A program made the translations under genes and the position numbers. Below are positions 213 to 47,020 of a stretch of DNA of 48,572 nucleotides, one piece after another (the stretch's first letter is position 1; the number at the start of each line of letters is the position of its first letter). Where the stretch lies: IMG/VR virus record IMGVR_UViG_2706794699_000012; one strand, written 5' to 3'. The notes under the pieces were generated by a model. It worked only from the letters and a program-made list of their open reading frames with translations. It was not told the origin of the DNA and did no database searches. The stretch is from a virus (taxonomy: Duplodnaviria > Heunggongvirae > Uroviricota > Caudoviricetes).

Positions 213-833
213 TTACTCCCTGACAGGGTTCGTAGGCCACTCAATATCAGGTGCAGTTGACGTATCAACACGGTTCAGCAATACCCGATACTTTTTCCAT
301 GCTTCCAGCAACGAGATTTCTTCCTCCGTTGCAATTTCCAGATCTGCAGCATCCTGAAGCGGCGCAATATGCTCACTGGCTACCTGCATCAGGTTGTTTT
401 TTGTTTCTTCCGCCTCCCGGATCCGGAACAGTTTTTCTGCTTCCGTATCCTTCACCCAGGCTGTGCCGTTCCACTTCTGAAACNNNNNNNNNNNNNNNNN
501 NNNNNNNNNNNNNNNNNNNNNNNNNNNNNNNNNNNNNNNNNNNNNNNNNNNNNNNNNNNNNNNNNNNNNNNNNNNNNNNNNNNNNNNNNNNNNNNNNNNN
601 NNNNNNNNNNNNNNNNNNNNNNNNNNNNNNNNNNNNNNNNNNNNNNNNNNNNNNNNNNNNNNNNNNNNNNNNNNNNNNNNNNNNNNNNNNNNNNNNNNNN
701 NNNNNNNNNNNNNNNNNNNNNNNNNNNNNNNNNNNNNNNNNNNNNNNNNNNNNNNNNNNNNNNNNNNNNNNNNNNNNNNNNNNNNNNNNNNNNNTTTTAT
801 GGTCCGTGGTTGTTCACTCATTCTGAATGCCAT
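213..833 (-). CDS. tfa: tail fibre assembly protein (Tfa); interior N-masked
   Basis: C-terminal translation (...[29 protein letters not shown]) is typical of lambda/Rac Tfa; start overlaps stf stop by 1 nt; 484-794 is N. Confidence 0.75.
484..794. other. N-masked block (311 nt) inside tfa
   Basis: Run of n characters. Confidence 1.
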
Positions 834-4527: not shown

Positions 4528-7500
4528 TCAACGAATACTGATGCCGGAAGCCGCTTTTTTGGTCACAATCACCGTACAGTCGGTGATATTGCCTGCCCCC
4601 TGATTGCCTTTCTGGAAAATCTTAAACTCCAGAGTGACGCTACCACCACCACTAGGCATATCAATAACTGCACTGTAACTACCGGGAATGGCACCTTTAG
4701 TTTCTCTGGATGCGATTAATACGCCGTTTTTGCGAACTTCAAAACCATAACCCGTGTATCGCGTGCCTCCCGGGTTATTTCCGCTCCCCGGATCGTCATA
4801 CGCTATACCGTTAAAAATAATGGGCGGAATAATAATCTGGCGGTCAAAGTTATGATCATCGCTGATGGTGACTGTAACCGTACCGTCTGGTGTTTCCGTG
4901 TTACCCCACGTACCGACTTTTTTCGGGAAGGCTTTTGATACAGCTTTAACGAAATCCCCTCTGACCTGGGTCGCCTCCAGCATGCCCTTAATCGTACAGT
5001 TCTGGTTAATCGTGACATTGTTGAGCGTTCCTGAGTTCGCATTCACACTACCACTGATATCCGCATTTTTAGCGGTCAGCTTTCCGTCTGATGTCAGGGA
5101 AAATACCGGAGGACTGCCACCGCTGGTAATGGCGGGGGCTGTCAGGCGCTTCAGGAACACGTCGTTCATGAATATCTGGTTGCCCTGCGCCACAAACATC
5201 GGCGTTTCATTCCCGTTTGCCGGGTCAATAAACGCGATACGATTGGCGGCAACCAGAAACTGGCTCAGCTTGCCTTCCTCCGTGTCCTCCATGCTGAGGC
5301 CAATACCCGCGACATAATGTTTGCCGTCTTTGGTCTGCTCAATTTTGACGCCCCACATCGCATTCCATTTATCGTTAGCGTCCTTCCACTCTTTCGAAAA
5401 CTCATCCAGTCTGCTGGCGTTATCCTCCGTCAGATCAACTTTTTCCAGCAGCTCTTTACCGAGATGGGATTCGGTTATCTTGCCTTTGAAAAAATCCAGG
5501 TAACCTTCCGCATCATCGCTCGCCCGACCGACGGCCTCCACGAATGCCGATTTGCCAACGGTGTTCACACTGCGGATATAAAAGTAATAATCATGGCCCG
5601 GTTTGATATTGATACTGGCGGCTATCCAGTACAGCCCCGCGCCAAGGTAGCGGGCTGTGGTTTCAACCTGCCTGATATCGGTAATCCGCGTTTCCGAGAA
5701 CCAGAACTCAAACTGTACCGTCGGATCATAAACCGCAAGATGCGGCGTGGCAGTTATCTGAAAATAGCCCGGCGTCAGCTCAATCCGCGACGGTGCTACC
5801 GGTGCGGCAATCCTGAACGATACCGACGCCGGATCGCCCTGCTGTCCCCAGGCATTTACCGCCCGGACTGTCAGCGTGTACCGTCCCAGCGCCAGTTGCG
5901 TGAAGCGGTATGTGGTTTCCGTCGTCCGGGCCGTGCTGACCAGCCGCTCACTGNNNNNNNNNNNNNNNNNNNNNNNNNNNNNNNNNNNNNNNNNNNNNNN
6001 NNNNNNNNNNNNNNNNNNNNNNNNNNNNNNNNNNNNNNNNNNNNNNNNNNNNNNNNNNNNNNNNNNNNNNNNNNNNNNNNNNNNNNNNNNNNNNNNNNNN
6101 NNNNNNNNNNNNNNNNNNNNNNNNNNNNNNNNNNNNNNNNNNNNNNNNNNNNNNNNNNNNNNNNNNNNNNNNNNNNNNNNNNNNNNNNNNNNNNNNNNNN
6201 NNNNNNNNNNNNNNNNNNNNNNNNNNNNNNNNNNNNNNNNNNNNNNNNNNNNNNNNNNNNNNNNNNNNNNNNNNNNNNNNNNNNNNNNNNNNNNNNNNNN
6301 NNNNNNNNNNNNNNNNNNNNNNNNNGCCGTCAGGAACACGGCTCACTTTCACCTTCACGCCGTCGGTGACGGACTGAACCTCCACGCTGACCGGATTGCC
6401 ACTTCCGTCAACCAGGCTTATCAGCATGGTACCGGAGGATGGCAGCGTGATTTCACGGTCGAGCGTCAGCGTCCGGGTCTGGCTGTTTACCGCCAGCACG
6501 CGCCCGCCGATGCTGATACCCGCATAGTCATCATCACAGATTTCAATGACATCGCCCGGCACATGGCGAAGCCCTTCTGCGCCCACGCTGAAGTCCACGG
6601 TCTGCGTTTCCAGCAGTTCTGTTTTAATCAGCCACAGCCCGGCGCGGTGTGCCTGCCCCCGGCTGGTACAGCCAAAAGCATCCATCTTCGTGACGTTACG
6701 ACCGTAACGGGCAATGGCCTGCGTATCCTCCACAAGCTCTGTCGCCGTCTCCCAGCCGTTATCCGGGTCAATCCAGTTCACCTCAACGGCATTATGGCGG
6801 TCTTTCAGGGCGCTGAAGCTGTAGCGGAACGGCGCGCCATCATCCGGCATCACCACATTACTGCGGTTATAGGTCCACACCTTATCCGACGGTCGGTCCT
6901 GCACGAACGTCAGCGTCTGCCCGTTCCATACCGGCATACAGCGCATCGCCGAGCAGAAATCACTGAGCACATCCCACGCCTTGCGCTGTGTGGTCAGGTA
7001 CGCATTACAGGTGATGCGCGGCTCCGTGCCGCCAAAGCCGTCCGGCACTGACTGGTCGCAGTACTGGCCGATGACATACAGCGCCCATTTGTCCACATCC
7101 GCCGCACCAAGACGTTTCCCCATGCCGTAGCGCGGGTGGGTCAGCATATCCCACAGACACCAGGCCATGTTGTTGCTGTATGCTGGTTTTAACGTTCCGT
7201 CCCAGATACCGCTGTATTGTCGCGTCTGCGGGTTATAGTTCGACGGCACCTGCAGAATGCGCCCGCGAAGATGATAATTACGACTCACCTGCTGGCTGCC
7301 GAACTGCTCCGAGTCCACCTGTACGCCGACCAGTGCAGTGTTCGGGTAGCACTGTTTCACATCGATGATTTCGGTGTATGACGACCAGAGCGTTTTGTTC
7401 TGCAGCTGGTCTGTGGTGCTGTCCGGTGTCATCCTGCGCATCCGGATACTGAACGGGCGCGGAGGCAGGTTATCCACCACCACCGAGACCAGATACTGCG

Positions 7501-29416: not shown

Positions 29417-29812
29417 CTAACCTCGCATGTCAAAGCCAGATTTCTGAAAATCTCTGTAGACTTCCGGATTGTTGAAGGCCGGAAATTTGGCTTTATGAGC
29501 TGCGGACTTTATCGCTTCGCAATAGGCTTTATCACCGTTACTGGTAGATATTTTTAACGCCGTGCCATCCTGAGAGAATTCCATATGCAACCTGCATTTT
29601 TTCCCTTTCCAGTTATGCGGCTCATCAAGTTTGGCATTAATTGCAGCTCTGATTCCCCGCGCTTGCGCCCCCCATTCATCCTGATCATCCCAGCGTCCTG
29701 AACTGCAACTACCTGTAGCAGTAGTTTTGTGGCAATCTGAAGGGTGTAAAGGTGTGCATCCCGCAACAAAACCGACCCAAAAAGTCAACATAACGATTTT
29801 CTTTAATCCCAC
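29417..29812 (-). CDS. lipoprotein with TolA domain-III-like C-terminus (paralogue 2)
   Basis: GTG start preceded by GAGGAG; signal peptide + lipobox VAGC; C-terminal ...KKCRLHMEFSQDGTALKISTSNGDKAYCEAIKSAAHKAKFPAFNNPEVYRDFQKSGFDMRG parallels paralogue 1, including the Cys pair. Confidence 0.7.
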   Translation of the reverse strand: MGLKKIVMLTFWVGFVAGCTPLHPSDCHKTTATGSCSSGRWDDQDEWGAQARGIRAAINAKLDEPHNWKGKKCRLHMEFSQDGTALKISTSNGDKAYCEAIKSAAHKAKFPAFNNPEVYRDFQKSGFDMRG

Positions 29813-29962
29813 TTCTTGCTCCTCAATCCATTAAAATCTCAGCAATAGTAGTTGTTACGTCCGCCACTGGCTCAGAGCTGACTATCCGCTAAATTTAGCT
29901 CAGTGCCGTAGCTGTGTCAGAACAAACCTAAGCCGAAACCGTTTATTACAAAACAATAAATA

Positions 29963-30391
29963 TCAGGGTTTAAAATCCAGCACCCCATTTTGAAATACTT
30001 TATATACTTCCGGCGAAGGGGGGGCAGGTATATCAGCATTCTTTATCGCATTCATCGCTTCACGACATAAATCGAGGTCTCCACTTTCTCTTTTAACCTC
30101 CAGTAGAAGGCCATTCGGGGCCATATGCATTCTCAGTGTACACTCTTTTCCTGAATACTTACTCGCATCCCCGAACTGTTTTTCGATGGCGCTCTTGATT
30201 TGATGGGCATACAGACGGATATCCTCACTAACATCAGAAGTACGTTCAGATGAACTCACATACTGTGTCTCTATTGCTTTATCGGAGTAATATGATGTAC
30301 GGTCATGATAATTTGTCGATACAGCATCAGTGCACCCGATAATAATCCCACTAATAATCAACGTAAGAATTGATGCGCTACGAAAACCCAT
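29963..30391 (-). CDS. lipoprotein with TolA domain-III-like C-terminus (paralogue 1)
   Basis: Signal peptide + lipobox IIGC; C-terminal YAHQIKSAIEKQFGDASKYSGKECTLRMHMAPNGLLLEVKRESGDLDLCREAMNAIKNADIPAPPSPEVYKVFQNGVLDFKP closely resembles the E. coli TolA C-terminus (...TCTLRIKLAPDGMLLDIKPEGGDPALCQAA...KNAPLDFKP, from memory); SD GAGG upstream. Confidence 0.75.
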   Translation of the reverse strand: MGFRSASILTLIISGIIIGCTDAVSTNYHDRTSYYSDKAIETQYVSSSERTSDVSEDIRLYAHQIKSAIEKQFGDASKYSGKECTLRMHMAPNGLLLEVKRESGDLDLCREAMNAIKNADIPAPPSPEVYKVFQNGVLDFKP

Positions 30392-30988
30392 TTTTCCTCA
30401 CATATGTCATATAGTAAAGGATTATATATACCGTTGTTTTGGACGCTCAAACAGCGAATCAGATCAAATAAAACGCACATTTGTTAACATTTACACAAAG
30501 TCTGCGTGGGATATTCTGAAAGAATATCCATAATGTGGAGAGAATCTATTGAAGTGCATGGTGCCGGGTGCCTCCCGGTGAACAAAATGTTCGTGATACC
30601 TGTCGGCGACAGAAAAGGTTAATGGTATCACCCCACCGCACAGGGGGATTCACCATGCAGGAGTTTTCTTAGCAAACTCACTGCGCGCCCGGCAACTCCC
30701 AACCACATAAAATGCGGAGTTTGTGGCATTTATGCATATAACTCGCAGGAATTATCTTAAAAAACTGATGTCGATCCGGATTAAAAAGAAGCAGGTCATC
30801 ATCAGATGACTGGAAAAAAGGAAAACAAAAAATACTCATCATACAGTTTTGATTGCAGGGATGAGCCTGCTATGCACAATATGCAGAATATAAGCAAGAT
30901 AAAAATATGCAGGCATATTATTTCGGATCTTGTTATTAACACAACCTTTTTAATAATCATTTGGCATACAATAAACCAGCCCAAAAAG

Positions 30989-31008
30989 AACCGCCTAAAC
31001 AGGCGGTT
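30989..31008 (-). terminator. hairpin + U-run in the post-Q leader
   Basis: Stem aaccgcc (30989-30995) / ggcggtt (31002-31008); minus-strand RNA is followed by CUUUUUGGG. Confidence 0.4.
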
Positions 31009-31325
31009 GGTCAATACAAAGGATGCTTCGTCTTTATTATAGTAATCTGAGGCGTCGGGTGTCTTGTATCAGACAACATATTGTCCCGCTAAACAGCGAA
31101 TTACAAACCACCCTGCAATGATCTCTCATCTCATTTTATATGAGTTGACGACATCAGGATAACGCATCATCAGCCCCTGCCAAGAAATATCAAAACTCCC
31201 GCCAGCAATGTGTTATCACAATATTGTAAAAAAAACACAGCACCGAAACTATAACTGGTCTCTGTTATAATTTGGAGCAGAAAGACCAGTTGCCCAACTA
31301 GCAGCATTCTCCCCTGCTTTCCTGA

Positions 31326-31358
31326 CGTAAAAAAACCGCATTAAGCGGTTTTTTTACG
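31326..31358. terminator. bidirectional A-tract/T-tract hairpin about 80 nt downstream of Q (tR-prime-like)
   Basis: cgtaaaaaaaccgc (31326-31339) - attaa - gcggtttttttacg (31345-31358); perfect 14-bp palindrome arms with T7 on both strands. Confidence 0.5.
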
Positions 31359-31435
31359 ATGTCCATGTCTGCAATCCGCCTCGCGATACAGCTTTGCGAA
31401 GCATAGCAAAATTGAAGCAGTTTATACGTAAGAAA

Positions 31436-31978
31436 TCAAGCCATTTTCTCAGCAAATGATTCACGCATGGGAATATATAGGGCATACTCAGCAACAGCTA
31501 ACCAATTAGCAATCCGTTTTTCGCATGTGCTAAAACACCACTCTGGGTGTGCATCATTTAGCAATTCAGCCATTTTGCGCTTAGTCATCCCCCGCCCTTC
31601 ATAGCGTTGCCGGAGAATGCAAATCAATCCTGGATGCTCTGCCAGCACCTCACTTATGACTCGATCAATACATAACGCCTCTGCATCAGTACAATGCGCC
31701 AGCCAGCTCTTTTGCTTGCCGTTGATCATCTCTCGCAAAAACGCTTCCAGCTCAGCTTTCTCTATTCCCGCTTTTTTCATTCTGCGCAGGGCTTCATTAA
31801 TGGCTGTTTTCGTCAGTTTTTTGGATGCCAACAACTGATTGAACATATTCCCTGACCTGCCACCGCCAATATACGACCAGCGCCCCCACATACGTAGTTT
31901 TCCCTGAATCCAGACACTTTCCAGCGTGGTGAGGCGAAGGTGTTCTCCGCTTTTTCCTGTATTCGTTGGGTAAATCAT
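31436..31978 (-). CDS. late-gene antiterminator Q-like protein
   Basis: Assigned mainly by position: last gene after DUF1364, immediately upstream of tR-prime-like hairpin and lysis cassette; 180 aa. Confidence 0.55.
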   Translation of the reverse strand: MIYPTNTGKSGEHLRLTTLESVWIQGKLRMWGRWSYIGGGRSGNMFNQLLASKKLTKTAINEALRRMKKAGIEKAELEAFLREMINGKQKSWLAHCTDAEALCIDRVISEVLAEHPGLICILRQRYEGRGMTKRKMAELLNDAHPEWCFSTCEKRIANWLAVAEYALYIPMRESFAEKMA

Positions 31979-46819: not shown

Positions 46820-47020
46820 ATGGAGGTGTTCATGTATAAAATTACCGCCACTATTGAAAAGGAAGGTGGCACTCCTACTAACTGGACAAGATATTCAAAA
46901 TCTAAACTAACGAAATCAGAATGCGAAAAAATGCTCTCAGGTAAAAAAGAAGCAGGCGTTTCCAGAGAGCAGAAAGTAAAACTGATAAATTTTAATTGCG
47001 AGAAACTTCAGTCCTCGTGA
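46820..47020 (+). CDS. ydaC: small protein YdaC-like
   Basis: MEVFMYKITATIEKEGGTPTNW...; GGAGGTG upstream; alternative start at 46832. Confidence 0.5.
   Translation: MEVFMYKITATIEKEGGTPTNWTRYSKSKLTKSECEKMLSGKKEAGVSREQKVKLINFNCEKLQSS

Follow-up and report, generated by a model that had tools for sequence, protein, structure and literature searches.

A mosaic, probably non-coding late-operon leader between a DUF1133-type Q gene and the TolA-like morons of a Rac-type prophage

The interval, its neighbours and its pieces

We analysed the interval between the late antiterminator gene Q and the first moron of a lambdoid Escherichia coli prophage, positions 30392-31435 of virus record IMGVR_UViG_2706794699_000012, whose full 48,572 nucleotides (nt) are here called the window. 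The prophage is of the Rac type and its late genes lie on the minus strand: genes for a DUF1367 protein, a YbcO-like nuclease and a DUF1133 protein are followed by the 1044-nt interval, two TolA-like morons, holin, lysozyme and spanin, and trkG adjoins the lysis genes in near-identical genomes. A gathering-level Rfam match to RalA, the small RNA (sRNA) antitoxin of RalR (46838-47016, minus strand, 225 bits), marks the element as Rac-like. We consider it likely that the interval is a non-coding, promoter-proximal leader of the late operon, recombined from four RNA-level modules that all lie on the minus strand. A sequence-only reading of this DNA had described a gene-poor late leader between Q and the first moron; the coordinates of all the features that it listed agree with ours, and the position at the head of the late operon is supported by what follows. 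Of 5426 complete E. coli genomes, about 446, coming from many hosts, contain the interval at 99% identity or more, with no annotation under it.

We accept the DUF1133 protein as Q on four grounds taken together. It matches Pfam PF06576 (DUF1133) at 2.5e-107 and narrowly passes PF06530, Phage_antitermQ (26.1 bits, cut-off 26); it matches PHROG 753, 'anti-termination protein Q-like', at 2e-79; its N-terminal part weakly matches the Q21 chains 6jnx and 6p18 (E = 0.27); and DUF1133 was given as a Q antiterminator by HHpred in a survey of Stx phages (PMC8136144). The Q alleles from the recovered loci are too alike to yield a useful profile against the PDB. The end of the gene at 31436 is where it had been read before.

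The AT-richness reported earlier holds over most of the interval (G+C 0.34-0.43; early genes 0.47-0.56), apart from an island of 0.51 at 30500-30700 that corresponds to the core of an STnc100 sRNA gene. ARAGORN finds no tRNA in the whole window and the Rfam tRNA model likewise finds none, with no match at E <= 10 in 29800-31600, in agreement with the earlier reading, which had recognised no tRNA. The Rfam scan did detect an RNA gene, STnc100, in a region that had been judged large enough to hold a small RNA. The statement that some 600 nt lack a credible open reading frame (ORF) stands in that no ORF is conserved there, but the stretch is not empty, since the Rfam-significant RNA gene lies inside it.

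That a small protein is encoded here, perhaps by one of the hydrophobic ORFs of 52/70 amino acids (aa; 30802-31014) or 45 aa (31170-31307), is very improbable. Both frames exist, and lambdoid late regions often encode small membrane proteins. Nevertheless, no ORF in the interval has a Pfam match; the 52/70-aa and 54-aa ORFs are out of frame in two relatives (L012, 83% identical, and L007), whose homologous DNA is frame-shifted or contains stops; indels break the 45-aa frame in L008; and the 70-aa ORF would need translation through a terminator hairpin. The sole recurrent ORF in the tRNA-trailer segment described below keeps only its first seven codons across 23 sequences and then shifts frame; we read this segment as an RNA and not a protein gene. 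The ORFs of 45, 52/70 and 54 aa and the seven-codon trailer ORF were all rejected as not conserved in frame.

In BLAST searches of E. coli genomes and IMG/VR prophage contigs, the interval falls into segments that each have a history of their own. The segment 31440-31276 has a 77-81% relative in three loci (L057, L125, L119), while the sister prophage L012 matches 31064-30769 at 83% and 30768-30391 at 95%. Positions 30764-30548 match STnc100 copies upstream of esterase genes, and 30582-30392 recur at 100% identity in many prophages in which this TolA-like moron stands behind another type of Q; in L002 that moron follows a different Q, tRNAs and a DUF3927 gene. Between the trailer and STnc100, the AT-rich spacer shares 83% identity with L012 and L006 and 76% with L003 and L007, and indels break the frame. 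A 16-nt degenerate pattern retrieved useful loci from viral contigs, whereas in genome contigs it gave chance matches in unrelated phyla only. The features discussed are collected in Table 1.

Table 1. Features in and around the interval, in the direction of late transcription (window coordinates)
Feature	Position	Strand	Basis or remark
Q-like antiterminator gene (DUF1133), 180 aa	31436-31978	minus	Pfam, PHROG
Candidate late promoter pR' and Q-loading region	31377-31439	minus	conservation behind DUF1133 Q genes
Putative -35, TTGATT	31439-31434	minus	overlaps the Q stop codon
Putative extended -10, TGcTTCAAT, 17-bp spacer	TG 31419-31418, hexamer 31416-31411	minus	
Candidate -10-like sigma-dependent pause element, TATGCT	31405-31400	minus	TAYGCT invariant in 18 variants
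tR', symmetric intrinsic terminator CGT-A7-CCGC-ttaat-GCGG-T7-ACG	31326-31358	minus	14-bp perfect stem
End of 'type-A' leader and recombination joint	31275-31325	minus	homology borders
tRNA-less, partly deleted copy of ~290-nt structured RNA	30984-31274	minus	homology to trailers of tRNA clusters
Promoter-like AAGACA-18-TATAAT in trailer	31036-31065	minus	10/12 matches
AT-rich non-coding spacer	30689-30983	minus	homology to L012, L006, L003, L007
STnc100 -35, TTGCCG	30695-30690	minus	in spacer
STnc100/PasD-family sRNA gene	30502-30688	minus	RF02076
STnc100 extended -10, TGcTAAGAA, 18-bp spacer	30674-30666	minus	inside STnc100 match
Weak terminator candidate, ACGCA...UGUGCGU and UUUAUUU	30466-30506	minus	-9.3 kcal/mol, z = -1.6
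Sigma-70 promoter-like TTGAGC-18-TATAAT for TolA-like moron	30421-30450	minus	10/12 matches
TolA-like lipoprotein morons, paralogous pair	29963-30391 and 29417-29812	minus	PF06519, PHROG 5772

The candidate late promoter block, tR' and the recombination joint

The block 31440-31377, which begins at the stop codon of Q, is 90-95% identical behind DUF1133 Q genes, whatever cargo lies downstream, and outside its roughly 60 nt from 31435 to 31377 nothing is conserved behind every DUF1133 Q allele. In an alignment of 18 non-redundant versions of the sequence behind these genes, two nearly invariant stretches, AAACTGCTTCAAT and TAYGCTTCGCAAAGCTGTATCGCGAGGCG, are separated by five variable bases. TTG always stands 17 bp before TTCAAT although the Q 3' ends and the spacer differ; the -35 candidate varies as TTGATT, TTGCAA, TTGCAT and TTGCTT, and both TTG and TGCTTCAAT are kept in all 18. 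From this pattern we infer that TTG-N17-TGcTTCAAT represents a -35 and an extended -10 with a start near A31404, and that TAYGCT, lying right where the transcript begins, would act as a -10-like pause element like that of lambda. A consensus promoter scan makes no call at TTGATT-17-TGcTTCAAT because position 2 of the -10 is a T. It is also conceivable that TAYGCT is itself the -10, with a start near 31393, although in that position it has no -35. The sequence-only reading had placed the late promoter and qut site just upstream of 31358, and the conserved 31435-31377 block is consistent with a promoter and Q-loading site there.

Two repeats lie in the same block. One, TGCTTC, is present in two copies (31419-31414 and 31403-31398) and is no more than a candidate for a Q site. 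A 7-bp inverted repeat, GCTTCGC/GCGAGGC with an 11-nt loop (31398-31378, minus strand), falls inside the invariant promoter block and may act in the DNA as a protein site or in the leader RNA as a hairpin at +7 to +27.

The A7/T7-flanked palindrome that had been likened to tR' has arms CGTAAAAAAACCGC (31326-31339) and GCGGTTTTTTTACG (31345-31358), each of 14 nt and 100% complementary around a 5-nt loop, and both the perfect stem with its T7 run and the retention of the hairpin in diverged relatives bear the likeness out. Being symmetric, the terminator is potentially bidirectional. The RNA of leader plus tR' folds at -30.4 kcal/mol against a shuffle mean of -18.3 (z = -4.06), and 0 of 200 shuffles are as good. 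Two relatives, L125 and L119, keep the hairpin through paired insertions that turn CCGC/GCGG into CCCGC/GCGGG; other Q alleles have a different hairpin, AACCCGCC-loop-GGCGGGTTTT, with a T-run at the same distance, and a hairpin with a T-run is found in all alleles 40-50 nt past the conserved block. A leader RNA of about 75 nt, ended by tR', should form constitutively in the lysogen, by analogy with the 6S RNA of lambda and with the short pR'-tR' transcripts (StxS) that are constitutive in lysogens of related phages (PMC7547250). Rfam matches around tR' (Thr_leader at 23 bits, isrK at 21.6, AgrB, OrzO-P and SurA) are far under their cut-offs and, since they rest on the A-run, hairpin and U-run, were rejected as terminator look-alikes.

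Beyond tR' the history of the sequence changes. Homology of 31440-31276 to L057 and L125 (76.7%) ends at 31276, and homology to loci with a tRNA trailer begins at about 31275. The inverted repeat reported as ctggtct...agaccag is present at 31253-31291, where AACTGGTCT (31253-31261) and AGACCAGTT (31283-31291) pair perfectly over 9 nt with 21 nt between the arms, but it is absent from relatives and straddles the recombination joint. Its 5' arm (31283-31291), part of the window-type segment, is missing from the trailer loci, and the repeat was therefore rejected, as unconserved, as a functional trailer hairpin.

A probable remnant of a tRNA island

Between 31275 and 30984 the window shows 67-79% identity to what lies behind the tRNA clusters of other prophages. 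In sister Rac-type prophages that share its Q and promoter block, tR' is followed by a promoter and either tRNA-Ile/Arg/Thr/Gly (L012) or tRNA-Thr/Gly (L013, L098, L125, L044), and these clusters then run into a homologue of window 31274-30984. The trailer sequence was recovered in 84 loci. In 54 of these, tRNA-Gly(UCC) ends 160-172 nt before a fixed anchor; 29 have no tRNA and show the same joint as the window; and one further locus is another recombinant. The trailer directly follows the last tRNA in all 54 tRNA-bearing loci, and the window copy has no tRNA upstream. On this homology, 31274-30984 is the tail of a lost tRNA island whose tRNA genes and promoter are gone. The earlier suggestion of degraded cargo was correct, though the cargo was RNA: the tRNA clusters of the sisters have been lost here and only the structured trailer is left. 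Two sisters show what else the slot can hold, L125 having a 348-aa ORF between tR' and the tRNAs (1137-2183) and L012 a good promoter, TTGCAA-17-TATTAT, before tRNA-Ile (1217-1385); the slot therefore carries variable inserts ahead of a constant trailer.

An RNAalifold alignment of the trailer (A4; 23 sequences, 76 pairs) has 97.0% of cells paired, compared with 39-53% when partners are slid, and ten pairs with changes on both sides, compared with 4.9 +/- 1.4 in shuffles (0 of 500 reach ten). This covariation is moderate rather than strong, because the sequences are closely related. The conserved elements are a 35-bp G.U-rich hairpin (window 31230-31145), a branched domain closed by GAGGYG/CRCCUC, in which eight sequences exchange C-G for U-A, an A-rich linker, and a terminator of the form CCAACCGCC-loop-GGCGGTT-U run. 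As the G.U pairs become C.A mismatches on the other strand, the fold is specific to the late-sense strand. The second minus-strand hairpin with a U-run, previously pointed out at 30989-31008, is present: window 31008-30989 forms eight pairs, five of them G-C, followed by CTTTTTGG, and the U-run continues to 30983. It is the terminator of the trailer RNA.

A 17-nt deletion has damaged the window copy, costing it an arm of one helix and, from a CGGG-AGGCA-CCCG hairpin, the 5' half. The same deletion made the AAGACA -35-like hexamer of the promoter-like site in the trailer, which is missing from intact trailers. The 13-nt CGGG-AGGCA-CCCG hairpin is shared by the trailer (A4 columns 222-240, e.g. 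L098 ~6795-6815) and STnc100 (window 30579-30559) and is nearly invariant in both families, with a chance expectation, roughly estimated, of ~1e-3; it could reflect a common protein or RNase partner, or common ancestry.

Known systems offer two comparisons. The tRNA islands of Stx and other lambdoid phages, such as ileZ-argN-argO, likewise lie between Q and S, and the window segment is homologous to the trailers of the sisters' tRNA genes; unlike those islands, the window has no tRNA genes. The second, 3'ETS-leuZ, comes from the trailer of a tRNA operon and extends to its terminator. The present RNA would resemble it as a trailer of a tRNA operon ending at a terminator, a likeness of position, and differs in being far longer (~290 nt) and more structured.

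In its intact form the trailer matches no Rfam family at E <= 1. About 427 E. coli genomes carry it without annotation, up to five copies apiece, and it occurs at 40 places on plasmids, among them E. coli plasmids H260-H264 (102-306 kb, ~70-73% identity). Among phage records the intact trailer matches two, SerU-LTIIb, an LT-IIb enterotoxin prophage (KU052038 1364-1660), and vB_EcoS-683R6, while the window-type copy matches none. The ~290-nt RNA after tRNA-Gly(UCC) may be an undescribed functional structured RNA family of lambdoid prophages, a proposal that we hold tentatively and at somewhat less than even weight. It might act as an Hfq sRNA or sponge, or as an element for the processing or stability of phage tRNAs. 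The trailer RNA is the only item at this locus that may be new, and the better material for its study lies in other prophages, the window copy being damaged.

STnc100, the moron and a model for the late leader

STnc100 matches the full Rfam model (positions 1-206) at 86.6 bits against a gathering score of 47, with E = 2.8e-17 for the window and 1e-18 in a local search. In the minimum-free-energy fold (-55.1 kcal/mol, z = -3.63) the core takes the form of the family's multi-branch junction, with GCAUGGUG/CACCAUGC as the closing helix. The -35 pattern TTG..C and the -10 pattern T..TAA.A are conserved in 10 of 10 aligned STnc100/PasD copies, including PasD1 and PasD2, and the mapped 5' end of both PasD RNAs, GCATGGTGAATCC (coordinates from PMC8550237, Table S6), is identical over its first 13 nt to window 30658-30646, which would place the STnc100 start at G30658. 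Given the conserved promoter and the PasD 5' match, this copy of STnc100 bears the marks of an independent gene. PasD1 and PasD2 of enteropathogenic E. coli are abundant 172-nt Hfq-bound RNAs confirmed by Northern blot (PMC8550237), STnc100 has been related to both in a 2026 preprint (bioRxiv 10.64898/2026.05.13.724894), and STnc100/PasD relatives have been detected by reverse-transcription PCR (PMC12370729). The window copy may yield a discrete Hfq-associated RNA, as shown for these relatives. PasA gave just 11-nt chance matches in the window, and no PasB or PasC probe sequence was seen in the interval on inspection by eye.

The copy shares with STnc100/PasD1/PasD2 (EcOnc13) the closing helix, the CCCCC..GGGG and CCGGG-AGGCA-CCCGG hairpins, the promoter hexamers, the first 13 nt and a moron position between Q and S. 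It differs from them in its replaced 3' module and in a linker unlike the PasD seed region, and it is single where other prophages have arrays of 3-4. In place of the strong terminator of other members stands an AT-rich 9-bp hairpin (30529-30509), and the stem of the weak terminator candidate that follows (Table 1) is further weakened in L012 by a G-to-A change. With no U-run terminator, STnc100 transcripts would therefore run on into the moron or be trimmed.

This 3' end bears on whether STnc100 acts here in trans at all. It may instead form the structured 5' leader of the mRNA for the TolA-like moron and act in cis, with polymerase running from the STnc100 promoter on into the moron and the fold governing stability, processing or translation. 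Such a role would suit the missing U-run and the weakness of the only downstream hairpin that has one. It would also suit the position of STnc100 directly upstream of cargo (a TolA-like lipoprotein or SASA/NanS-type esterase) in every locus examined, often in 3-4 copies, and the 100% conservation in many genomes, as one unit, of 30392-30582, which joins the 3' part of STnc100 to the moron. We nevertheless regard a cis-acting leader as unlikely: most family members, PasD1 and PasD2 among them, end in strong terminators and are discrete 170-nt Hfq-bound RNAs, and a better promoter, the moron's own, lies 30 nt ahead of the ATG at 30391.

In other E. coli prophages STnc100 forms head-to-tail arrays of three or four full copies with a period of ~260 nt, each copy with its own terminator (L004 2444-3423; L003 1526-2641; L007 2810-3925; L006 817-1030, 2936-3109 and 3831-4293). 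These arrays lie just upstream of a SASA/NanS-type esterase or TolA-like moron, and an array is unusual for a trans-acting sRNA. RefSeq 'hypothetical protein' coding sequences or pseudogenes run antisense to STnc100/PasD copies at L002 2642-2782 and L011 1801-2199 and are probably mis-calls over the RNA gene. The TolA-like morons consist of a signal/lipobox and a TolA C-terminal domain, PHROG 5772 being of unknown function, and such a product could plausibly serve as a periplasmic TolA-III decoy against Tol-dependent colicins or filamentous phages. Elsewhere in the window, IS009 is matched at Rfam gathering level (256-454, minus strand, 221 bits).

A more sceptical view would leave a role to pR'-tR' alone and treat the remainder of the interval as inert debris of recombination, in which trailer and STnc100 are relics in decay. 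We find this doubtful, though it deserves to be taken seriously, as tRNAs, promoter and 17 nt of the second domain are all missing from the trailer, STnc100 has lost its terminator, and the unconserved inverted repeat at 31253-31291 spans a joint. Decay is harder to reconcile with an intact STnc100 core, closing helix and promoter hexamers, with a long hairpin and terminator that still pair in the window trailer, and with the preservation of all 1044 nt in so many genomes (about 446, at least 99% identity), although recent spread would equally give that last result.

We propose a model in which the interval functions as the leader of the late operon, following the Q paradigm (bioRxiv 10.1101/651190, PMC6606751). 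In the lysogen, sigma-70 polymerase would start constitutively at pR' and stop at tR'. Upon induction, the DUF1133 Q would load onto polymerase paused near TAYGCT and make it terminator-resistant, and the modified polymerase would then pass tR', the trailer terminator and the morons, with any moron terminators, to reach S, R and Rz. The trailer remnant with its terminator would probably just be read through. STnc100, having its own promoter, would presumably be made in the lysogen, where the moron would use its own promoter as well. The promoter and pause assignments, the start sites, the dependence on Q and the expression of any RNA are here predictions made from conservation and homology. 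Most of what the interval contains is of familiar kinds: a late leader, an sRNA from a known family and what is left of a tRNA island.

Several observations weigh against this account. The proposed -10, TTCAAT, is without the usual A at -11, and no Q-binding element can be named, the TGAGCA repeat bound by Q21 (PMC6606751) being absent from both strands of 31377-31470. The likeness of the DUF1133 protein to the solved Q21 is marginal, and its single-sequence AlphaFold model reaches a pLDDT (predicted local distance difference test) of 39.6, too low to be of use. The score of STnc100, 86.6 bits, is near the bottom of its copies, those at other loci scoring 76.6-141.7 with two lower, and the family terminator U-run is deleted in its Rfam alignment. 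Finally, the trailer is internally deleted and so may be inert here.

The order of parts is that of the Q cassettes of lambda, 82 and 21: a gene for a Q-like family protein, then a conserved candidate promoter block from the Q stop codon, a -10-like hexamer at the putative transcript start, a terminator ~75 nt on, and finally morons and lysis genes. Unlike those cassettes, the window has a Q of the DUF1133 type, a class without a mapped Q-binding element or pause site, a non-canonical -10 (TTCAAT with an upstream TG) and a second terminator 320 nt further on, and unlike phage 21 the window lacks, at this place, the Q-binding-element repeat TGAGCA. The 6S RNA of lambda has 194 nt, and the window leader is shorter.

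This analysis provides a late-operon leader map for the DUF1133 class of Q, whose promoter, pause and binding sites lack definition, and in vitro work could start directly from the invariant block 31439-31377 as template. An unannotated 1-kb 'gap' in about 446 complete E. coli genomes holds a member of a known family of Hfq sRNAs. The tRNA-trailer RNA, in about 427 further genomes and absent from both Rfam and annotation, offers a modest lead for RNA biologists. Furthermore, turnover of the cargo slot between Q and S is seen to involve the deletion and replacement of RNA genes too, besides that of protein morons.

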